A DNA stretch of 25,190 nt, from NCBI GenBank assembly GCA_043822705.1, contig JBDRBK010000094.1, positions 1 to 25,190 of the forward strand, read 5' to 3'. Position numbers and translations under genes: made by a program. Origin of the DNA: Fidelibacterota bacterium (GTDB taxonomy: Bacteria; Fidelibacterota; Marinisomatia; Marinisomatales; TCS56). Each line of letters starts with the position of its first letter. The stretch's first letter is position 1. A model generated the notes under the pieces. That model searched no databases and was not told the origin of the DNA. It saw only the letters and a program-made list of their open reading frames with translations. This document shows, in pieces, positions 1 through 22,650 of this stretch.

Positions 1-3000
1 ACTCACTGGTGGCCCCGACGGTGACATTGACCGGGTCTGACAATGCAAAAATCACCGTTTCCGCGGCTTCGTCCAGCAAGTCGTTGGTCACGGCAAAAGT
101 GAAGGTTTTGGATATCTCACCGGCGGCGAAAGTGGCTGTGCCGGCAGTGTAGCTGAAATCAGTGCCGCCGGCTGTGGCCGTCCCCCCGCTCAGATCATAG
201 TCGACCGTAACAGTCCGCCCGGAAACCGGGGACAGGTTGATCGTTACGGTAACCGGTGTTGTGGCCTCACCCCCGCTGGCTGTGGCCGTCGAAAAATTCA
301 CCAGCGGTAAATCGTCGTTATCGGTAATTGTATAAGTATAACTGGTGTTTGTGCCCAGCGCAGCCGCCACCGGGCTGGAGATATCGACAATAATCGTTTC
401 CGCATCCTCATCCAGAGCATCGTCCTCGATATCGATCGTAACGGTGGTAGTGGTGGTCCCGGCAGTGATCGTAGCGGTACCCGATGCCAGGGTATAATCG
501 GTTCCGCTGCCGGCAGCAGTACCCCCGCTAACAGCATAATCGACCGTCACGTTGCGGCCGGAAACGGCGCTGATTTGCAGACCCAGATTAACACTGGCGG
601 TTCCTTCTCCACCGCTGGAACTGGTAGCTGTAAACTGGACTGTCGGTGGATCATCATTATCGGTTATGGTCAGGGTGTGACTGCTGATCGTCCCCAGATC
701 GGCGCTGTCCGGGCTGGACAGACCAATAATTACCGTTTCGCTCGCTTCATCCAGCAAATCATCGTTGATGGTCACATCGATCGTGGTCGAGGTGGCGCCG
801 GCGGCGATGGTGGCTGTTCCCGCGGCCAGGGTATAATCGACACCGGCCGGACTGGCGGTTCCGCCGGTTACGGCATAATCAACCGACACTTCCTTGCCGG
901 ATACAGCGTTGAGCTGAACCGTGATCGATTTGGGGGACACTTCTTCACTGACTGTCGAAGTGGCGTTGGCAAAGGCCACCTTGACCGGATTATCATTATC
1001 GGTAATGGTCAGCGTGTGAACGGTGTTTACTCCGAGGGTGGCGTTGGTTGGCGCTGCCAGGGTCACCACCACTGTTTCGTCGCGCTCATCCAGGGTGTCG
1101 TCAGTAATTGTCACCGGAACCGTGACAGTCGAGAGTCCGGCGGTGATCGTGGCCGTACCGCTGGCCAGGGTATAATCCACCCCGGCGCCGCTGGCGTTCC
1201 CGCCGGTCACGGAATAATTCGTACTGGCATTCAAACCGGAAACGGCCGATAGCCGTACCGTCAGGTTTTTCGTCCCTGCGGCTTCATCAGCAGTTGATGA
1301 CGTCAGACTGAAATCAATGGTCGGTGCCGTCTCATTATCAGTGATCGTATAGGTGTGAACGGTCGTTCCACCTAAGGCCGAGTTGGTCGGATTGGACAGG
1401 GTTAAAATAATCGTCTCACTGTTTTCCAGCAGGGCATCATCGACAATCGTTGCTTGAACTGTAGTCGAGGTGGCGGCGGCGGTGATTGTGGCGGTACCAT
1501 TTGCCAGGGTATAATCGACACCACCGCCGCTGGCGGTTCCGGTCAGGGCGTAATCGACCGTTGCGGCCAGACCGGAAATATCGGAAAGGTTGATCGTAAT
1601 CGTCGCCGGTGTGGAATTTTCGGCGCCGCTGGATGTCGCACTGGAAAAATATATCGTCGGCGTCGGATCGTCGTCGGCAATGGTATAGGTATGGGTGAAA
1701 TTAGCTCCCACGGTGGCGTTGGTGGGACCCGATAATTCCACTTCGATGGTCTCGTCGTCTTCAAAAATGGCGTCATTATTGATGATAATATTGATCAGGG
1801 TCGAGGTTGCTCCGGCGGTAATCGTGGCGGTGCCACTAGCCAGGGTATAATCGGTGCCGCTGCCGCTGGCGGTGCCACCGGTGGCGGCATAGCCGACGGT
1901 GACATTACGGGCCGATGCAGCGCTGAGCTGGACCGTCAGACTGACCGGCGAGGTCGCCTCGGAACCGGTGCTGGTGGTGCTGGAAAAAGCAATCGATGGC
2001 GACGCATCATTGTCGGAAATCGTCAGCGTATATTCATCGGCGGCGCTCAAAGTGGCGTTGGTGGCACCCGACAGGGCCAGAATCACGGTTTCCTCATCCA
2101 CCTCATCGAGCACGTCATTTGTGACGGTCAATGATATGGTCGTACTGCTGGCCCCGGCGACGATGGTGGCTGTGCCTGGTGTATAGGAATAATCGCTGCC
2201 GTCGGTGGCTGTACCACCAGTCAGGGCATGATCGACCGTAATCGTTCTTCCCGATATCGCTGACAGGCTGATCGTCAGTGTAACGGCACCCTGGTCCTCG
2301 GTTACGGTTGAACTGGTGGTTGAAAAACCAACCGTAGGCGCGTTATCATTATCTGTGATCGTGTAGGTGTGGGTCGATTGGGTACCCAGGGTGGCATTAG
2401 TGGGATTTGACAGCGTCAGGATGATCGTTTCGTCGGCCTCGTCCAGCAGATCGTTAACGATCGGTATTGAAATATTTCCGGAGGTGGAACCGGCTGTGAT
2501 CGTCAGTGTTCCGTTGACCAGGGTATAGTCGGTACCGCTGCCGGTAGCCGTACCCGATACGGCGTAGTCGACTGTGGCATTCAATCCCGATAACTGGGAA
2601 GAAACAACGATTCCGGCCGGTGATGCTGCCTCGGAGCCGCTGGATGTTTCGGCGGCGAACTGCAGCGACGGCGGACTGGTGGTATTATTAATGGTGTAGG
2701 TGTACTGGGTCGTCGCTCCCAGGGTGGCGTTGACCGGATTCGATATATCAATGATTATAGTTTCGTTATTCTCATACAGGGCGTCGGTGTTGATCCCTGT
2801 GATACTAATATCCGTGTATTGTTGACCGGCTGTGAAGGAGGCGCTGCCGGCAGCCAGCACATAATCGGTGCCACCACCGGTAGCGGTGCTGGAGCCATTG
2901 ATCGAATAACTGACCGATACCGTTCGTCCTGATACCGCCGAGAGTCCCAGTTGAATATTGGCCGTGCCGACACCCTCATTCCCGCTGCCACTACTGGAAG

Positions 3001-3784
3001 TAAAGGCCACGGTCGGGGAATCGTCGTTATCGATAATACTGAACGTGTGGGTCGAGTCATCCCCGATCGTCACATTGACCGGGGTGCGCAGAGCAAAAAT
3101 TATCGTCTCGTCATCCTCGTCGAGAGCGTCTTCGTTAACATAAGTGGAAATATTCTGGGTAGTACTACCCGGAGAAAAGGTCAACTGCGTCGACATGTAG
3201 GCATCATAATCCACGCCTGAACCGGTGGCGGTGCCCCCGGTGACCTGGAAATTGAGAGTGATGGTCTTGCCCGAGGCCGCTGACAGCGCCACTGCCACCG
3301 ACGACCAGTCCGTGTCTTCCTGGTCGGAGGAACTGGATTGGGTAAAAGTGACCTCGGGTGCGGCATCATCATCGTTGATTGTGAATGTATAAGTAGTGGG
3401 GCTGGCCAGCGAACCCTGGCTGGGATTTGCCAGCGTCAGGATGAAAGTTTCATTGTCCTCGTCGCGAATATCGTCGACTACGGTGAAGGTAATGCTCTTG
3501 ATGGAATCGTTGTTTGCACCAAACACAATGGTTGTGTTAGACCAGCTGACGTCGCCGGTCGAGGCCGTGCTGGAATTACTACGCTGGACTTCGACACTGA
3601 CATTGCCAAGCGCCAGATCGAGGGCGCTGTAGCCGTTGGCGACCAGTTGGACCGTTTGCGTACCTGAGGTATTTTCGGCGCCACTGGTGCTGGTTGACAA
3701 GAACTTGATTGTTTCAGCCGGTGTAAAACCGGTCAACACAAACAACAGTACTGGAATCAATCGATATTTGAAGTGGCTGTTCAT
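1..3784 (-). CDS. Large secreted/surface protein with about 11 tandem Calx-beta domains (3'-partial, runs off the window's left edge)
   Basis: Not in the ORF track. Read by hand from ATG 3784: MNSHFKYRLIPVLLFVLTGFTPAETIKF (signal peptide), then open to position 2 (...VNVTVGATSE). About 114-aa repeats with motifs such as VDYAVTGGTA..G.DYTLASGTATITAG, DDALDEDAETII..LS.P.NA.LG and HTYTITDND. Confidence 0.93.
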   Translation of the reverse strand, partial: MNSHFKYRLIPVLLFVLTGFTPAETIKFLSTSTSGAENTSGTQTVQLVANGYSALDLALGNVSVEVQRSNSSTASTGDVSWSNTTIVFGANNDSIKSITFTVVDDIRDEDNETFILTLANPSQGSLASPTTYTFTINDDDAAPEVTFTQSSSSDQEDTDWSSVAVALSAASGKTITLNFQVTGGTATGSGVDYDAYMSTQLTFSPGSTTQNISTYVNEDALDEDDETIIFALRTPVNVTIGDDSTHTFSIIDNDDSPTVAFTSSSGSGNEGVGTANIQLGLSAVSGRTVSVSYSINGSSTATGGGTDYVLAAGSASFTAGQQYTDISITGINTDALYENNETIIIDISNPVNATLGATTQYTYTINNTTSPPSLQFAAETSSGSEAASPAGIVVSSQLSGLNATVDYAVSGTATGSGTDYTLVNGTLTITAGSTSGNISIPIVNDLLDEADETIILTLSNPTNATLGTQSTHTYTITDNDNAPTVGFSTTSSTVTEDQGAVTLTISLSAISGRTITVDHALTGGTATDGSDYSYTPGTATIVAGASSTTISLTVTNDVLDEVDEETVILALSGATNATLSAADEYTLTISDNDASPSIAFSSTTSTGSEATSPVSLTVQLSAASARNVTVGYAATGGTASGSGTDYTLASGTATITAGATSTLINIIINNDAIFEDDETIEVELSGPTNATVGANFTHTYTIADDDPTPTIYFSSATSSGAENSTPATITINLSDISGLAATVDYALTGTASGGGVDYTLANGTATITAAATSTTVQATIVDDALLENSETIILTLSNPTNSALGGTTVHTYTITDNETAPTIDFSLTSSTADEAAGTKNLTVRLSAVSGLNASTNYSVTGGNASGAGVDYTLASGTATITAGLSTVTVPVTITDDTLDERDETVVVTLAAPTNATLGVNTVHTLTITDNDNPVKVAFANATSTVSEEVSPKSITVQLNAVSGKEVSVDYAVTGGTASPAGVDYTLAAGTATIAAGATSTTIDVTINDDLLDEASETVIIGLSSPDSADLGTISSHTLTITDNDDPPTVQFTATSSSGGEGTASVNLGLQISAVSGRNVTVDYAVSGGTAAGSGTDYTLASGTATITAGTTTTTVTIDIEDDALDEDAETIIVDISSPVAAALGTNTSYTYTITDNDDLPLVNFSTATASGGEATTPVTVTINLSPVSGRTVTVDYDLSGGTATAGGTDFSYTAGTATFAAGEISKTFTFAVTNDLLDEAAETVIFALSDPVNVTVGATSE

Positions 3785-10864: not shown

Positions 10865-10898
10865 CCCGCCTGACCGCTGACGCAGTCAGTCGGGCTGG
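10865..10898. repeat. 34-nt palindromic T-loop insert, copy 1 (tRNA-Glu fragment)
   Basis: + strand CCCGCCTGACCGCTGACGCAGTCAGTCGGGCTGG between GGATTC and GAACCCC. Confidence 0.95.
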
Positions 10899-11006
10899 GA
10901 ACCCCTGTTACCTGTAAATTAATCTATTTCTCAGCAATAATCTTTACTTCTGAAATGTTCTGATGAAAACCCCTGTTATAAAAGGAAAACCCGCCACAGG
11001 GCGGGT

Positions 11007-12572
11007 CAGACTGTTGACAAAGTCCTCGCAGAGCTGCGGGGACTTTTTTATAATTGTACATGTTAAAACCCTATTGTGATAAGCAGATACAATTAGAATA
11101 TGTAAGCATCGAGGGATTAGTACCGGACAACCACCTTCTGCGCAAAATAGACCGCGCAATCGACTTTGATTTCATCCGTGAAAAAGTCAGGGATTTATAT
11201 TGTTCTGACAATGGTCGGCCGGCGATTGATCCGGTAATATTATTCAAGATGCTATTCATCGGTTACTTGTTTGGCATCCGCAGTGAGCGGCAACTGATCC
11301 GTGATATTGAAGTAAATGTAGCCTACCGCTGGTTTCTTGGAATGAACCTGACCGACAAGATACCGGATGCTTCGACCCTGAGTCAGAACCGTCGTCGTCG
11401 CTTTACCGGCAGTACGATTTATCAGGAGATATTCGATGAGATCGTATTTCAGTCCATGCGTCGCCAGTTAGTTGACGGTAAAGTGCTTTATACCGACTCA
11501 ACCCATTTAAAGGCCAGCGCGAATAAAATTAAGTTTGAGAAGAAAGCGGTTAAAAAATCCATTTGTTCCTATTTTGATGCTCTGGAACAGGCTATTACAA
11601 AAGACCGTGCAGCTCATGGAAAGCAGCCCTTAACACCCCAGCCACCGGAACCGGAGGTCAAGCAGACCAAGATCAGTACAACCGATCCTGATAGTGGCTA
11701 TATGGTCCGTGAAGGTAAGCCAAAGGGTTTTTTCTATCTTGATCACCGCAGTGTGGATGGCAAACACAACATTATTACCGACTGTCATGTTACCCCGGCC
11801 AATGTACATGACAGTATTCCATATCTTGATCGACTGGATCGTCAGCGTGATCGTTTTGGTTTTGATGTGGATACGGTTGGGTTGGACGCCGGATATTTTA
11901 GCGCTTCAATATGTAAAGGTCTGGAGGACCGTGGTATTTATGGTGTGATCGGTTACCGTCGCCCCAACCACAAACAGGGTTATCTCAGGAAAGCGGAGTT
12001 TGTTTATTGTCAGGAAAAGGATTGTTATTATTGTCCCGGAGGGCAGGAACTTAAATACCGGACAACTACTCGTCAGGGCTACCGTGAATACCAATCAAAT
12101 CCTAAATTGTGTCGGCAGTGTTCTTTTCTGAAGTGCTGTACCAACAGTGCCAACTACACCAAAATAGTTACCCGTCATATCTGGGAGGAGAGTAAAGAGC
12201 GCATCGACAGCCACCGCTTAACTGAACGTGGAAAGAAGCTGTACAAACGGCGTAAAGAAACGGTTGAGCGAAGTTTTGCCGATTCGAAACAGCTCCACGG
12301 TCACCGCTATGCCCGAATGCGCGGGCTGTTAAAAGTTCAAGAGCAATCCTTATTGTGCGCTGCATGCCAGAATATGAAGAAGATAGCCTCGCAGGTGTGG
12401 GAAACTATCTTTTCGTCAAAATGGCGCCAACAGAACCCCGTTTTTGATTATCTGCGTAATCTGGTGAATTATATCCGGATTAATTTCGATAGCCGCCAAA
12501 TACAAGTTATTGAAGGCAATTTGTGTTAAAACAAACCCCGCTTAAGAAAAAACGGGGTTTGTCAGCGATCTG
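11007..12572 (+). mobile_element. IS1182-family insertion sequence
   Basis: Imperfect terminal IRs CAGACTGTTGACAAA and CAGATCGCTGACAAA (reverse complement of right end). 18-bp direct repeat ACCCGCCACAGGGCGGGT at 10989-11006 and 12573-12590. Boundary is uncertain by 1 nt because the target is palindromic. Confidence 0.9.
11060..12529 (+). CDS. IS1182 family DDE transposase
   Basis: LVPDNHLLRKID, GRPAIDPV.LFKML, SERQL, YTDSTHLKASA, STTDPDSG, LDAGY, CPGG, YKRRKETVERSFADSKQLHG. Uninterrupted; start is ATG 11060 or TTG 11054. Confidence 0.95.
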   Translation: MLKPYCDKQIQLEYVSIEGLVPDNHLLRKIDRAIDFDFIREKVRDLYCSDNGRPAIDPVILFKMLFIGYLFGIRSERQLIRDIEVNVAYRWFLGMNLTDKIPDASTLSQNRRRRFTGSTIYQEIFDEIVFQSMRRQLVDGKVLYTDSTHLKASANKIKFEKKAVKKSICSYFDALEQAITKDRAAHGKQPLTPQPPEPEVKQTKISTTDPDSGYMVREGKPKGFFYLDHRSVDGKHNIITDCHVTPANVHDSIPYLDRLDRQRDRFGFDVDTVGLDAGYFSASICKGLEDRGIYGVIGYRRPNHKQGYLRKAEFVYCQEKDCYYCPGGQELKYRTTTRQGYREYQSNPKLCRQCSFLKCCTNSANYTKIVTRHIWEESKERIDSHRLTERGKKLYKRRKETVERSFADSKQLHGHRYARMRGLLKVQEQSLLCAACQNMKKIASQVWETIFSSKWRQQNPVFDYLRNLVNYIRINFDSRQIQVIEGNLC

Positions 12573-12616
12573 ACCCGCCACAGGGCGGGTCTTAATTCGT
12601 AGCCCGTAGGGGATTC

Positions 12617-12650
12617 CCCGCCTGACCGCTGACGCAGTCAGTCGGGCTGG
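12617..12650. repeat. 34-nt palindromic T-loop insert, copy 2 (tRNA-Glu fragment)
   Basis: Identical to copy 1, same flanks. Confidence 0.95.
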
Positions 12651-12784: not shown

Positions 12785-12817
12785 CCCGCCTGACCGCGAC
12801 GCAGTCAGTCGGGCTGG
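12785..12817. repeat. 33-nt palindromic T-loop insert, copy 3 (tRNA-Glu fragment)
   Basis: Same as copy 1 with one T deleted in the central loop (CCGCGACGCA). Confidence 0.95.
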
Positions 12818-12930: not shown

Positions 12931-13005
12931 TGGTAGCCCGTAGGGGATTCGAACCCCTGTTACCGGCGTGAGAGGCCAGCGTCCTAACCCCTAGACGAAC
13001 GGGCC
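12931..13005 (-). tRNA. tRNA-Glu(CTC)
   Basis: GGCCCGTTCGTCTAGGGGTTAGGACGCTGGCCT-CTC-ACGCCGGTAACAGGGGTTCGAATCCCCTACGGGCTACCA; full cloverleaf, CCA encoded. Confidence 0.97.
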
Positions 13006-16092: not shown

Positions 16093-16272
16093 CAGTAATC
16101 GTAAATATCCGGATGTAATTGATCAAAATTAACAGCGGAAAATACACAGGATAAGATTGAAAAAATACTCCGTGATCGTTAATAGTGTACTTGTGACTGT
16201 TGGTGTGCTGGTCTGGGTGGCACAGCTACAGAAATTCTTCCAGAAAATAGTCCAGCGGAGGCGAGAGGATTC

Positions 16273-16306
16273 CCCGCCTAACCGCTGACGCAGTCAGTCG
16301 GGCAGG
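16273..16306. repeat. 34-nt palindromic T-loop insert, copy 4 (tRNA-Ser fragment)
   Basis: CCCGCCTAACCGCTGACGCAGTCAGTCGGGCAGG between GGATTC and GAACCTC. Confidence 0.95.
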
Positions 16307-16554
16307 GAACCTCCGGAGGCTGTGATCCTGTCAATAAAACGTCTTCCGGCACTGGATTTAAGGTATTTTTCCCTTTCCCGTGCTGACGACCGTGAACCGA
16401 CATATTGTTGATAAATCAACTTGAAAGGTGTATGATGTTTGGTCGATTTGACTTTGCCGGCATTATGCGATTTCAGACGATTTTCCGGCTTCTCAGACAT
16501 GCCGGTATATCTGAATCCATCTGATAAACTTTCAATTACATACACATAATACAT
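16294..16554 (-). CDS. GIY-YIG nuclease family protein (YhbQ/UPF0213-like), distal copy
   Basis: YYVYVI...YTGMS...RLKSHN.G..KSTK...P..LIY......RSSA..REK.LKS; catalytic Tyr/Arg/His/Glu positions present. Confidence 0.92.
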   Translation of the reverse strand: MYYVYVIESLSDGFRYTGMSEKPENRLKSHNAGKVKSTKHHTPFKLIYQQYVGSRSSAREREKYLKSSAGRRFIDRITASGGSLPD

Positions 16555-16574
16555 CCGCGGAGGCGAGAGGATTC

Positions 16575-16608
16575 CCCGACTGACCGCTGACGCAGTCAGT
16601 CGGGCAGG
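16575..16608. repeat. 34-nt palindromic T-loop insert, copy 5 (tRNA-Ser fragment)
   Basis: CCCGACTGAC-CGCTGACGCA-GTCAGTCGGG-CAGG; perfect 10-bp inverted repeat. Confidence 0.95.
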
Positions 16609-16856
16609 GAACTTCTGGAGGCTGTGATCCGGTCAATGAAACGTCTTCCGGCACAGGATTTAAGGTATTTTTCCCTTTCCCGTGCTGACGATCGTGAACC
16701 GACATATTGTTGATAAATCAACCTGAAAGGTGTATGATATTTGGTCGATTTGACTTTGCCGGCATTATGCGATTTCAGACGATTATTTGGCTTCTCAGAC
16801 ATGCCGGTATATCTGAATCCATCTGATAAACTTTCAATTACATACACATAATACAT
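16596..16856 (-). CDS. GIY-YIG nuclease family protein, proximal copy
   Basis: 86 aa from ATG 16856; differs from the distal copy at 6 residues. The track's 114-aa version merely reads through the tRNA. Confidence 0.92.
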   Translation of the reverse strand: MYYVYVIESLSDGFRYTGMSEKPNNRLKSHNAGKVKSTKYHTPFRLIYQQYVGSRSSAREREKYLKSCAGRRFIDRITASRSSLPD

Positions 16857-16859
16857 CCG

Positions 16860-16946
16860 CGGAGGCGAGAGGATTCGAACCTCTGGAGGGCGTAAACCCT
16901 CAACGGTTTTCAAGACCGCCGCATTCAACCGCTCTGCCACGCCTCC
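16860..16946 (-). tRNA. tRNA-Ser(TGA)
   Basis: GGAGGCGTGGCAGAGCGGTTGAATGCGGCGGTCT-TGA-AAACCGTTGAGGGTTTACGCCCTCCAGAGGTTCGAATCCTCTCGCCTCCG; long variable arm, G discriminator, no CCA. Confidence 0.96.
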
Positions 16947-17229
16947 AAACTGAAATTGCGCTGTGGTTTTCAGCGGGAGATTTTAGCGATTTCTGTTCTT
17001 TTGTCATACAAAATTCATCTGCCGGCCGATCGCCTGAAATACCAGTTTTGCCAATAAAACATTCCAGCCTATATTTCAGCGACTTTTGGGGACATATCAC
17101 AGAGCCGATGACGGTCAGTAGCATGAATCCTCCGGTATTCCGGCTGGATATTTTTCCGCGGATTGCGATTTATTCGCGACTGGTAGCTTACACAATCAAA
17201 GATCTCCGTAAAATCTGGAGGATAGGCCG

Positions 17230-18724: not shown

Positions 18725-20140
18725 ATGAATCCCTGGGATTTGGCACTGAATTTCAAAGATGTCGTTCTGGATTTCACCTACCTGAGCGGCTTTTTAGTAT
18801 TGGCTACCCTGCTGCGTCGTTACGTTCCCCTGCTCCAGAAATTTCTGATTCCCAACAATGTCGTGGCCGGTTTTTTCGGTCTGCTGATCGGCAGTCAATT
18901 GTTGGGACTGATCAATCTGGAAAGCGCCCGGCTGGGCCAGTATGTCTATCATCTGCTGGCCCTGACCTTCATCGCTATCGGCCTGCGGCAGCAGAAAACC
19001 CACTGGGGCCGCGGACCGCTGAGCAAGAGTTTTACCGGCCTGTCCTGCTATATTATACAGGCCGTCATTGGTATTCTGGTGGCTTTCGGTTTCATTTATT
19101 CTTTCTGGCCAGACCTGTTCCCCGGGATCGGTTTTCTGCTGCCGCTGGGTTTCGGCATGGGACCGGGCATCGCCTACACCATGGGACACAGTTGGGAAAA
19201 ATTCGGATTCGAAGGCGGCGGTATGGTGGGACTCACCTTCTCGGTCATCGGCTTTCTGATCGCCTATTTCGCCGGGATTATTATCGTCAACCGCGGAATC
19301 AACAACCGCGAGACGACACTGGTCGACGGGCCGGACAAAATAACCAATGACATGCGCACCGGTGTAGTAAGTGAGGACGAGCCCAAAATCGCCGGTCGCC
19401 TGACCCTGTCGACCGAAGCGATCGAGCCGCTGGCGTTCCAGTTGGCCCTGATTGGGTTGCTGTACATGCTGACCTACGGCTTGATCCACTGGCTCACCGC
19501 TCTGATGGCCAAAGCCGGGCTCCAGGATTTCGTCGATACGGTCTGGTCTTTTCATTTTGTAGTCGGACTGTTGATCGCCATCGTGACCCGCGCCCTGATG
19601 GACCGGACCGGCAGCAGCTTCATCATCGACCGCGGATTAATGAACCGGACCTCCGGCGTCTGCATGGATTATCTGGTGACCGCCTCGATCGCGGCTATCA
19701 ATATCGCTATTGTCGGTCGTTACTGGGGTCCGATACTGGTAATGAGCATCCTGGGCGGTATCGGCACCTATGCCGTCGTCAAATACGCTTCGACACGTGC
19801 CTTCGATGACTACCATTTTGAGCGATTTGTGGGAATTTTCGGAGAAATGACCGGCACGATCAATTCCGGGCTGGTCCTGATCCGGGTGACCGATCCCGAA
19901 TTCGACACGCCGGCGGCGGAAGATCTGGCTTATGGCGGTGGTATTTCGCTGTTCCTGGGACTGCCGTTGTTGATCCTGCTGACCGTGCCGATGAGCGTTT
20001 TCGGCAACAGCCTGCGCGGCTACTGGATCACCTTCGGGATCATCCTGATTTATGCAGCCGTGCTCTGGACCGCCTGGCGTCTGATCGGATTTATCCGTTA
20101 CACCCGCCCTGTTTTCAAGCGATCCGAATCCCGGCAATAA
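18725..20140 (+). CDS. Sodium/glutamate symporter (GltS/ESS) family protein, paralog 1
   Basis: LRRYVPLLQKFLIPNNVVAG, PLGFGMGPG, GLTFSVIGF, GEMTGTINSGLVLIRVTDPEF; AAGGAGG RBS. Confidence 0.85.
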   Translation: MNPWDLALNFKDVVLDFTYLSGFLVLATLLRRYVPLLQKFLIPNNVVAGFFGLLIGSQLLGLINLESARLGQYVYHLLALTFIAIGLRQQKTHWGRGPLSKSFTGLSCYIIQAVIGILVAFGFIYSFWPDLFPGIGFLLPLGFGMGPGIAYTMGHSWEKFGFEGGGMVGLTFSVIGFLIAYFAGIIIVNRGINNRETTLVDGPDKITNDMRTGVVSEDEPKIAGRLTLSTEAIEPLAFQLALIGLLYMLTYGLIHWLTALMAKAGLQDFVDTVWSFHFVVGLLIAIVTRALMDRTGSSFIIDRGLMNRTSGVCMDYLVTASIAAINIAIVGRYWGPILVMSILGGIGTYAVVKYASTRAFDDYHFERFVGIFGEMTGTINSGLVLIRVTDPEFDTPAAEDLAYGGGISLFLGLPLLILLTVPMSVFGNSLRGYWITFGIILIYAAVLWTAWRLIGFIRYTRPVFKRSESRQ

Positions 20141-20172
20141 TTACTTGAATCAATTAGACAAAGGAGTATTCT

Positions 20173-21573
20173 ATGAGCCCCTGGGATCTTGATGTCAACT
20201 TTCGTCTGGTCGTTCTGGACCTGCTTTACCTCAGTTCCTTAATCCTGGTCGGCACCCTGCTGCGGCGCTATGTCAAATTCTTCCAGAGATTCCTGATACC
20301 GAATAATCTGATCGGCGGTGCGATCGGACTGCTGATCTGCACCCAGGGCTTCGGCTGGATCGACATGCCGTCGGAACGGCTGGGGATCTATGTCTATCAC
20401 CTGCTGGCCCTGACTTTCATCACGCTGGGCCTGCGTCAGGAAAAGAAACACTGGGGCAAGGGTCCCCTGAGCAAGGCCTTCGCTGCCTTGTCGTCTTATA
20501 TTGTCCAGGCCGCGATCGGTTTACTGGTGGCCTTCGCCCTGATCTATACAGTAAAACCGGATTTATTCGCCGGCATCGGCCTGCTGGTTCCGCTAGGGTT
20601 CGGCATGGGCCCGGGACTGGCCTACGCGATGGGCAACAGTTGGGAGCACTGGGGTTTCGAAGGCGGCGGGCTGGTGGGTCTGACCTTTGCCGCAATCGGC
20701 TACCTGTATGCCTTTTTTGCCGGAATGGCGATCATCCAGTGGGGCATTCGTACCGGGCAGAGCAACTTGATCAAAAGTACTGATCATATCACCGAAAACA
20801 TGCGTACCGGTATTAATCGGTTGGATGACCAGCCGATCGCGGGCCGGTTGCCGATGTCTTCCGAAGCAATCGAATCGATGGCATTTCAGTTCGGTTTGAT
20901 CGGGTTTGTCTACCTGCTGACTTACGGTTTCTGCTACGTTTTTACCGCTTTTCTGGAGAACGTCGGCGCCCATGATTTTGTAGCGACGATTTGGTCTTTC
21001 CACTTTGTTTTCGGCCTGCTGATCGCCCTGCTGGTCAGGAAAATCTTCGATAAAACCAAAACCGCCCATGTCATCGATAAGGGCCTGATGACGCGCTGGA
21101 TGGGTGTTTTCCTGGATTACCTGGTCGTGGGTGCGGTAGCCGCCATCAGCATCACAATCGTCGGTCAGTACTGGCGCTCGATCCTGTTCATGTCACTCCT
21201 GGCCGGTCCCGCCACCTTCGGGATATTGTATTATTTCTGCTATCGCGCCTTCGACGATTACCATTTCGAGCGCTTCGTGGAACTCTGGGGTGAAATGACC
21301 GGCACAATCAATTCCGCCCTGGTGCTGCTGCGGGTGACCGACCCGGAATTCAAAACGCCGGTGGCCGAGGATGCAGTCTATGGAAGTGGAATTACCCTGT
21401 TTCTGGGAATTCCGTTACTGGTTGTACTGAACGTACCGACGGCCTTCTACAAGAATGCCATCGAAGGTTACTGGGTCGCCTTGGGAATTCTGCTGCTGTA
21501 CTGGCTGGTCGCAGTCATTATCTGGCGGGCGATCGGCTTCCTGCAGTTTAAACGGGTGGTGCCGAAACCTTAA
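20173..21573 (+). CDS. Sodium/glutamate symporter (GltS/ESS) family protein, paralog 2
   Basis: Collinear with paralog 1 (LRRYVKFFQRFLIPNN, PLGFGMGPG, AFDDYHFERFV, GEMTGTINS, RVTDPEF); AAGGAG RBS. Confidence 0.85.
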   Translation: MSPWDLDVNFRLVVLDLLYLSSLILVGTLLRRYVKFFQRFLIPNNLIGGAIGLLICTQGFGWIDMPSERLGIYVYHLLALTFITLGLRQEKKHWGKGPLSKAFAALSSYIVQAAIGLLVAFALIYTVKPDLFAGIGLLVPLGFGMGPGLAYAMGNSWEHWGFEGGGLVGLTFAAIGYLYAFFAGMAIIQWGIRTGQSNLIKSTDHITENMRTGINRLDDQPIAGRLPMSSEAIESMAFQFGLIGFVYLLTYGFCYVFTAFLENVGAHDFVATIWSFHFVFGLLIALLVRKIFDKTKTAHVIDKGLMTRWMGVFLDYLVVGAVAAISITIVGQYWRSILFMSLLAGPATFGILYYFCYRAFDDYHFERFVELWGEMTGTINSALVLLRVTDPEFKTPVAEDAVYGSGITLFLGIPLLVVLNVPTAFYKNAIEGYWVALGILLLYWLVAVIIWRAIGFLQFKRVVPKP

Positions 21574-22379: not shown

Positions 22380-22563
22380 GGCGGAGAATTTAGGTTGCCG
22401 GGTATAAAAGAAAAAAGTTGGAACTGTTTTACCGATCAACTGGCTCCGGGATTTATACGGTAACCGGAATTATGAAGCTCAAACCGGACGGTTAGAATAG
22501 ACATATGACCGATATAATAAGAATTGTGAATTGTACTTTTTAAAACATAGAAATAGTACATAG

Positions 22564-22650
22564 CGGAGAGGCGGGGATTCGAACCCCGGAATAGATTTCT
22601 CTATTACATGCTTTCCAAGCAAGCGCCTTCAGCCTCTCGGCCACCTCTCC
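22564..22650 (-). tRNA. tRNA-Ser(GGA)
   Basis: GGAGAGGTGGCCGAGAGGCTGAAGGCGCTTGCTT-GGA-AAGCATGTAATAGAGAAATCTATTCCGGGGTTCGAATCCCCGCCTCTCCG; long variable arm; one U-U mismatch in the anticodon stem. Confidence 0.94.

Follow-up and report, generated by a model that had tools for sequence, protein, structure and literature searches.

Tandem units of a small GIY-YIG nuclease gene and a hairpin-split tRNA-Ser fragment probably belong to a selfish tRNA-lodging element in bacteria

tRNA loci are where mobile elements usually integrate, and a genomic island inserted there is bounded on one side by the intact tRNA gene and on the other by a duplicate of its 3′ fragment. Lone GIY-YIG nucleases associated with hairpins are a kind already known from the Ssn system. 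The binding site of SsnA, a lone GIY-YIG protein of 94 aa, is an oriented hairpin of single-stranded DNA; the protein cuts a few nucleotides upstream of this hairpin, on one strand only, and in Neisseria it lowers transformation by NTS-containing DNA about fivefold; its authors propose that the system originated as a mobile element, and their paper makes no mention of tRNA (Chenal et al. 2025, PMC11893778). SegB of phages T4 and T6 is a phage-borne GIY-YIG enzyme of 221 aa with a C-terminal DNA-binding part and no hairpin partner; it cuts double-stranded DNA, is encoded among tRNA genes, recognises the T-arm motif GGTTCRANTCC (PMC2330249), also given as RAWTSGAAC (PMC13096335), and its cuts lead through recombination to tandem amplification of tRNA-gene units (PMC13096335). 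The prokaryotic Slx1-like/UPF0213 proteins (among them YhbQ and BH0048) consist of a minimal GIY-YIG domain that ends before the C-terminal Asn region, and the accessible part of the review that covers them describes no linkage to tRNA genes (PMC1564403). Finally, REP/REPIN sequences and their RAYT partners, which are Y1 HUH enzymes, comprise short oriented hairpins in nested or tandem copies with autonomous and non-autonomous partners, and the accessible part of a REP survey contains no mention of GIY (PMC3733652).

The locus studied here lies in a 25,190-nt stretch of DNA from a Fidelibacterota bacterium (contig JBDRBK010000094.1 of assembly GCA_043822705.1), which was analysed whole and is called the window below. 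On its minus strand, an intact tRNA-Ser(TGA) gene is followed by an 86-codon ORF, whose ATG lies only 3 nt past the discriminator base of the tRNA, and then by a split copy of the T-arm and 3′ end of that tRNA, and the unit is present twice. The features of this array are as follows:

16980–17007, minus strand: sigma-70-like site (10/12), 34 nt upstream of tRNA-Ser(TGA); a consensus match only
16860–16946, minus strand: intact tRNA-Ser(TGA), the array anchor, with no encoded CCA (ARAGORN; Rfam RF00005, 59 bits)
16575–16876, minus strand: repeat unit 1 (302 nt), comprising the tRNA 3′ end from G57, the nuclease gene, the 5′ side of the T-arm and the hairpin
16596–16856, minus strand: proximal GIY-YIG gene, 86 aa, with Y5, Y16, G18, R26, H30 and E62 present
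16609–16621, minus strand: proximal 13-nt tRNA-derived stretch, equal to codons 79–83
16575–16608, minus strand: proximal 34-nt GC-rich hairpin insert at TTC^GAA, containing the stop codon
16273–16574, minus strand: repeat unit 2 (302 nt)
16558–16574, minus strand: tRNA-Ser 3′ fragment G57–G73, directly before the distal ATG
16294–16554, minus strand: distal GIY-YIG gene, 86 aa, intact
16307–16319, minus strand: distal 13-nt tRNA-derived stretch
16273–16306, minus strand: distal 34-nt hairpin insert, with 2 changes
16256–16272, minus strand: last tRNA-Ser 3′ fragment, the array end

The two 302-nt units, each combining an 86-aa GIY-YIG ORF with a tRNA-Ser 3′ fragment as the original prediction had proposed, are identical at 289 of 302 positions, leaving 13 differing sites, and their natural limits are G57 of the T-loop and the last base of the hairpin. 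The 34-nt insert separates C56 from G57 in the T-loop without loss or duplication of any target base, and the 13 nt that precede it correspond to the end of the variable arm, the 5′ strand of the T-stem and the TTC of tRNA-Ser(TGA), with one mismatch per copy. The last codons of the nuclease are indeed built from these two parts, as had been foreseen: codons 79–83 derive from the tRNA, and the first 13 nt of the insert supply the remaining codons and end in the TGA that stops the gene, so that the protein tails read TASRSSLPD and TASGGSLPD. Both copies are also intact, as claimed, and differ at 6 of 86 residues with 4 additional synonymous codon changes. The suggestion that the gene needs the insert to terminate stands for the position of this stop, but without the insert the frame would still end, 10 codons later, as a protein of 96 aa. 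Among 11 close homologues the stop lies within the hairpin in 10, at the same TGA in nine of them and in another frame in one (L303), and at L307 the gene stops before the hairpin; together with L318, where the tRNA fragment is unsplit, these loci contradict the idea that an SLPD tail is required for termination.

The unit is no artefact of this one assembly, since its copies differ at 13 sites and a related unit occurs in a separate public assembly, on a 332-nt contig spanning 16255–16574 with 33 differences. The public sequencing runs listed with the sequence are five DNA runs, in which it has small shares, and no RNA runs; their contigs show no junction that would indicate excision, which says nothing against it. 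A tRNA intron or a functional split tRNA was rejected because the split fragment lacks a 5′ half. No terminator-like site was found on the minus strand between 16000 and 17250, so transcription from the putative tRNA-Ser promoter likely reads through into the array. Promoter-like sites (10/12) also lie antisense to each nuclease gene (16408–16436 and 16710–16738, plus strand) and may be a by-product of coding. Separately, we note that the tRNA-Ser(TGA) gene is open in register with the nuclease, which yields a 114-aa call (16596–16940, minus strand); many database homologues carry N-terminal extensions like that of this call, and their starts are probably mis-called.

Both ORFs match the Pfam GIY-YIG family (PF01541) above its cut-off (E 2e-14 and 7.7e-16). 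The predicted structure (mean pLDDT 92.7) comprises one GIY-YIG domain, residues 1–82, and is least confident at the tail (residues 81–86, pLDDT 61). Five residues (Y5, G18, R26, H30 and K66) show no variation across 89 homologues, and two more (Y16 and E62) almost none. One close homologue falls in a cluster with a member named from Candidatus Marinimicrobia, and the host is probably of this phylum. The top fold matches of the model are UPF0213, HIGLE and Slx1, which are also the best matches by sequence (1zg2, E 1.4e-5); a search of NCBIfam gave no family for the nuclease, and one of the ESM Atlas returned generic GIY-YIG clusters only. As judged from its codon substitutions, the nuclease gene evolves under purifying selection: dN between genomes is 0.24–0.40 with dS saturated, and dN/dS between the two copies in the window is ~0.3–0.5, from few changes. 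Functional importance of the SLPD tail was rejected in view of the low confidence of the model there and the absence of the tail at L307, and on the reading favoured below the tRNA- and hairpin-derived C-terminus of the modelled protein would be a by-product of compaction rather than a functional domain.

How, then, does the cassette compare with the systems outlined above? Like the Slx1-like/UPF0213 proteins, the window protein is a stand-alone minimal GIY-YIG domain without the C-terminal Asn extension of UvrC and I-TevI; identity to that group, however, is ~28–30% (28% to E. coli YhbQ, which sits on a long branch that the trees do not place), and the window type is multi-copy, tRNA-linked, often decayed and partnered by a hairpin. 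Like Ssn, the locus pairs a small single-domain GIY-YIG gene with an oriented hairpin (20–50 nt in Ssn), and at 86 aa, with Y5, Y16 and E62 as the equivalent catalytic residues, the protein has the Tyr/Tyr/Glu set and approximately the ~95-aa single-domain size of the Ssn family (cd10448). Here, unlike in Ssn, the hairpin is enclosed by a tRNA fragment and includes the stop codon, and the units form tandem arrays; moreover, the window protein is 29% identical to an NTS-flanked homologue. Close homologues form a clade apart from Ssn-like proteins. Indeed, an AU test rejected a single clade of the 11 core rows and four NTS-flanked homologues (p-AU 0.016, 78 columns), the latter being homologues on NTS-bearing viral contigs that stood in for Ssn rather than SsnA itself, and relative to these stand-ins the window nuclease appears to fall outside the Ssn clade. 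The NTS motif has no match in the genome that carries the window, and a loose SRM-like pattern of our own making, drawn up independently of the paper's degenerate SRM string, occurs 40 times versus 28 in a Markov control.

The likeness to SegB lies in a GIY-YIG gene among tRNA genes and in the T-loop motif that SegB recognises, which is the one split here, with the insertion point at its exact centre. Nonetheless, the window protein lacks the C-terminal DNA-binding domain of SegB (86 aa versus 221 aa) and gave no significant BLASTP match to it (E 0.9); on sequence it is not a SegB-type enzyme, and it resembles both SegB and Ssn. The array also shares with tRNA-integrating genomic islands an intact tRNA gene and a direct repeat of its 3′ end, but its units are 302 bp long, the far fragment is split by a hairpin, and no integrase lies between the tRNA and the duplicated 3′ end, each unit holding only the 86-aa GIY-YIG gene. 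Compared with REP/RAYT, the partner is a GIY-YIG rather than an HUH protein, the copies are few and the insertion is in a tRNA loop; hairpins of the family were found within 800 nt of none of the five Y1 transposase genes of the genome (0/5), and the system is not REP/RAYT.

The proximal junction folds far better than its shuffled versions (z −3.6, 0/200 shuffles as good) and the distal junction more weakly so (z −2.4, 5/200). The hairpin at the gene end is conserved across ~40% DNA divergence with its orientation fixed relative to the strand, and in 20 of 21 pairs its arms are identical at 22–24 of 24 positions where the core of the gene is only 57–69% identical. An Rfam search returned tRNAs only, with no match to the hairpin at gathering score, and the exact hairpin pattern has no match in viral contigs. 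Genome-wide counts of short generic palindromes (10, 23, 19 and 27, versus 8, 15, 13 and 24 in the Markov control) are near the control, which argues that the hairpins are not an abundant REP family in this genome; the CCCGCC class (22 versus 9) is the sole one clearly above it.

The hairpin of the array has six copies in the genome, each at the T-loop position of a tRNA fragment: two in the tRNA-Ser array, three in nuclease-free tRNA-Glu(CTC) units of the window and one in a degenerate copy of tRNA-Asn. The additional features of the window are as follows:

12931–13005, minus strand: intact tRNA-Glu(CTC), anchor of the nuclease-free array
12785–12817, minus strand: hairpin (33 nt) in the T-loop of a tRNA-Glu(CTC) 3′ fragment, in a unit without a nuclease gene
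12617–12650, minus strand: hairpin in the second tRNA-Glu fragment
10865–10898, minus strand: hairpin in the third tRNA-Glu fragment, parted from the others by IS1182
22463–22561, minus strand: truncated GIY-YIG-like remnant, 1 nt past tRNA-Ser(GGA) (22563–22650), starting MYYFYVLKS; a weak match (E 2.6)

The spacers of the tRNA-Glu units, translated and inspected by eye, contain no recognisable GIY-YIG remnant. An IS1182 transposase gene (NF033551, 11054–12529) sits between these units, and an 18-nt palindromic terminator-like sequence on both of its sides (near 10985–11005 and 12570–12592) resembles a long target duplication. Seven PF01541 matches were found in the genome, namely one 630-aa frame, probably UvrC, and six small genes, all six of which follow tRNA-Ser(TGA), tmRNA or its fragments, tRNA-Asn or tRNA-Ser(CGA), and several of which are frameshifted or decayed. 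As a side observation, a second GIY-YIG lineage lies behind tmRNA, where tmRNA 3′ fragments are split by a different hairpin (contigs C7, 19577–20200, and C5, 31255–31691) and the array breaks at a contig end. Fragments of the 3′ end of tRNA-Met (C41, 58600–61859, and C104, 380–460) include an unsplit one that follows the gene at a distance of ~440 nt and two whose variable-loop position holds a hairpin; no nuclease was found beside these fragments.

Homologues of the nuclease are present in 32 of 41 related genomes. A tRNA or tmRNA gene lies within 400 nt at 70 of 87 loci in these relatives and at 39 of 52 loci from a genome and metagenome collection, versus 43 of 2405 control ORFs, and the nuclease gene and the tRNA or tmRNA gene are co-oriented at all 109 linked loci. 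Seventeen of the 30 loci without such a neighbour are near contig ends, and several of those have tRNA fragments. Linkage recurs at 22 of 27 further loci in the phylum, three of which overlap earlier loci. The counts exclude the duplicates L031, L068 and L072, and other near-duplicates were kept in the collection set of 52; two relative loci out of 89 are without a profile match, one weak match (G017:C2) falls outside the set, and the tree leaves out seven further near-duplicates and partial matches. In the tRNA fragments beside the genes, a GC-rich hairpin sits within the D-loop, the anticodon arm or the T-loop, or takes its place. Nuclease clades largely track the type of tRNA and of hairpin, as linkage alone would bring about, and both trees, built on 78–82 columns, resolve few of their deep branches. 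The window proteins belong to a group of 8 rows (99/94), or of 11 rows (87/90) once the tRNA-derived tail is trimmed, and 10 members of the latter are at tRNA-Ser genes of four anticodons and one is at tRNA-Glu. Close homologues thus sit at tRNA genes with the same hairpin, as the original prediction expected, and the contrary outcome, close homologues free of both, did not occur.

tRNA-Ser(TGA) arrays of the same layout occur in two genera of the family. Many copies are frameshifted or truncated, presence is patchy and the tRNA isoacceptor switches between loci. At L318 and L108 the cassette has an unsplit, hairpin-less tRNA fragment, and at L003 and L283 the split T-arm comes from a tRNA other than the resident one, with only the last 6–8 nt common to both, which points to movement of the cassette between loci via short homology at tRNA 3′ ends. 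We also note that L289 (genome G130) and L100 (G010) have two or three hairpins head-to-tail within one T-loop, and pseudo-tRNA-Gly copies with hairpins in the D, anticodon and T loops.

A search that started from the exact hairpin pattern gave 21 matches in 12 of 201 genomes of the phylum, and none with a reversed control. Sixteen of the matches are at the T-loop of tRNA fragments (Ser, Glu, Asn, Arg, Lys, Val, Met and one Phe-like), 10 of these without an adjacent nuclease, and the other five lie outside tRNAs, all in one other family. Among 63 genomes of the same order, all six with the exact pattern hold a close nuclease, two more have a close nuclease and variant hairpins, and 55 have neither, at a threshold (E ≤ 2e-19) that was picked after seeing the data; this co-occurrence is in part a trivial consequence of the physical linkage of hairpin and gene, and relatives do not count as independent cases. 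In the genome that carries the window, 13 of 28 matches to the hairpin family have the TC^GAA junction, and eight of these 13 lie in a stem-loop repeat that is not a tRNA. Here a sister hairpin with the same ends splits the loop of a REP-like stem-loop eight times (contigs C13, C40, C65, C115, C146 and C149), and at one site an intact copy is followed by two tandem split units of 43 nt, an architecture like that of the tRNA array. The REP-like repeat adjoins Y1 transposase genes on contigs C162 and C176. Genomes G150 and G005 have related hairpins in the REP-like repeat and no close homologue at E ≤ 1e-13. From these junctions the insertion target looks like a folded loop that ends in TCGAA, as T-loops provide, rather than a tRNA as such, and the nuclease-free hairpin units would fit a non-autonomous partner.

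By analogy with SsnA, the reading we favour, with a probability of roughly 45%, is that an Ssn-like, hairpin-directed nickase of single strands drives the duplication of the unit and its spread via short tRNA homology. We favour it because the protein lacks a DNA-binding domain, the hairpin is conserved, strand-oriented and inserted into loops, and 3 nt separate the gene from an intact T-loop. The units would be copies of a minimal selfish cassette of ~300 bp, made of an Slx1/UPF0213-type GIY-YIG gene and a tRNA repeat with a hairpin in its T-loop. The nuclease gene would be co-transcribed with the tRNA, and 3′ processing of the tRNA would release a nearly leaderless mRNA. The SsnA-like protein would bind the hairpin in single-stranded DNA and place its nick immediately on the 5′ side, at the GGTTC end that derives from the tRNA. 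The 3′ end so freed would be homologous to the intact T-arm that lies one unit further upstream, and re-priming out of register or recombination by the host would add a unit there; this could account for both the unit boundaries and the growth in tandem. A unit once released might use short homology to integrate at the 3′ end of a different tRNA gene and leave that tRNA intact; acting in trans, the same activity could produce nuclease-free arrays, as at tRNA-Glu, and put hairpins into other stem-loops with a TCGAA end. GIY-YIG nucleases are not known to have a joining activity, so host repair would have to do the joining. Counting against the Ssn-like reading are the unsplit cassettes at L318 and L108, the 5 of 21 hairpins outside tRNAs and the hairpins without a close homologue in G150 and G005; nor does it give a route by which a constant hairpin would reach a new site. 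Among the contigs analysed we saw neither a circle nor an empty-site pair nor a recent jump. We consider it rather doubtful that the 86-aa protein, as a hairpin-guided nickase, is the sole mobiliser of an autonomous ~300-bp element that has no integrase or transposase, places hairpins in folded DNA loops at TC^GAA, multiplies behind tRNA genes, moves between tRNA loci and lineages, and has clades specialised on particular tRNA loops and hairpins.

That the insert splits the SegB motif exactly, at its centre, also fits homing of the SegB kind. In this explanation the target of the nuclease in DNA is the T-loop motif in its intact form, and the hairpin serves as a mark of immunity, since it destroys that site in the tRNA copies of the cassette itself; occasional cuts in the resident tRNA gene, repaired by recombination, would yield tandem units and spread to cassette-free alleles. 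SegB activity does yield tandem repeats of tRNA plus gene, and TC^GAA is common to the non-tRNA insertion sites as well. We nevertheless think this explanation unlikely, given the missing DNA-binding domain and the lack of a significant BLASTP match, an intact target only 3 nt from the gene, hairpins of other clades that occupy or replace D-loops and anticodon arms, and the absence of phage relatives: tblastn of the nuclease against 50,697 phage records (1e-5) gave no match, and the hairpin has none in viral contigs.

The hairpins found without a gene, outside tRNAs, nested and head-to-tail, the hairpin-less cassettes at L318 and L108, and the five Y1 transposase matches in the genome would suit a further explanation, in which the hairpin is an independent REP- or MITE-like element, moved by an enzyme other than this one (from the Y1 transposases or from a different GIY-YIG lineage) into any dispensable stem-loop ending in TCGAA. 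The cassette itself would then be a tRNA duplication of the att type, invaded by the hairpin a single time in the ancestor of the clade. This explanation seems distinctly unlikely in the face of the retention of the hairpin at the gene end over ~40% DNA divergence, the lack of family hairpins near Y1 genes (0/5), the close nuclease in all six same-order genomes with the exact hairpin (at the post hoc threshold) and the occurrence of other hairpin types with other nuclease clades. Improbable, lastly, is a domesticated gatekeeper, a host-kept array that would limit recombination or integration through SsnA-like cutting of incoming single-stranded DNA at hairpin-marked tRNA loci, the usual integration sites, for although SsnA lowers transformation, the gene is under purifying selection, two genera share the tRNA-Ser(TGA) layout and the nuclease was not found in phage or plasmid collections (no tblastn match in the latter either), the patchiness, decayed copies, isoacceptor switching and the count of only six copies of the hairpin in the genome fit the birth and death of a selfish element better than genome-wide control.

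The cassette is a member of an element that is widespread and probably selfish, seems not to have been described before and lodges at tRNA genes in bacteria. Our literature search, which covered main texts largely from outside the subscription journals, found no description of this tRNA-linked hairpin cassette, and the supplementary family tables of PMC11893778 may cover such proteins. This locus contributes the two intact copies, the nuclease-free units with an identical hairpin in the same window and the TC^GAA junction shared with a non-tRNA repeat. Small GIY-YIG proteins form 4358 clusters at 50% identity (E ≤ 0.001) that are named only 'GIY-YIG nuclease family protein'; should the proteins described here be hairpin-directed single-strand nucleases, they would constitute a second large family beside Ssn, with enzyme–site pairs that can be read from the genome, useful for single-stranded DNA tools, and the untried idea of the Ssn authors that a hairpin and a lone GIY-YIG gene make a mobile element could be tested with a 302-bp construct. 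In these genomes the system also accounts for pseudo-tRNAs that are split, for breaks in the assembly where tRNA genes lie and for N-terminal extensions that have been mis-called.

Elsewhere in the window, positions 1–3500 (minus strand) hold a long gene with 339-nt repeats, probably for a surface protein with repeated domains, and positions 18725–21573 (plus strand) hold genes for two tandem paralogous membrane proteins (77% over 196 nt), one of which has a weak match to a sodium/glutamate symporter.
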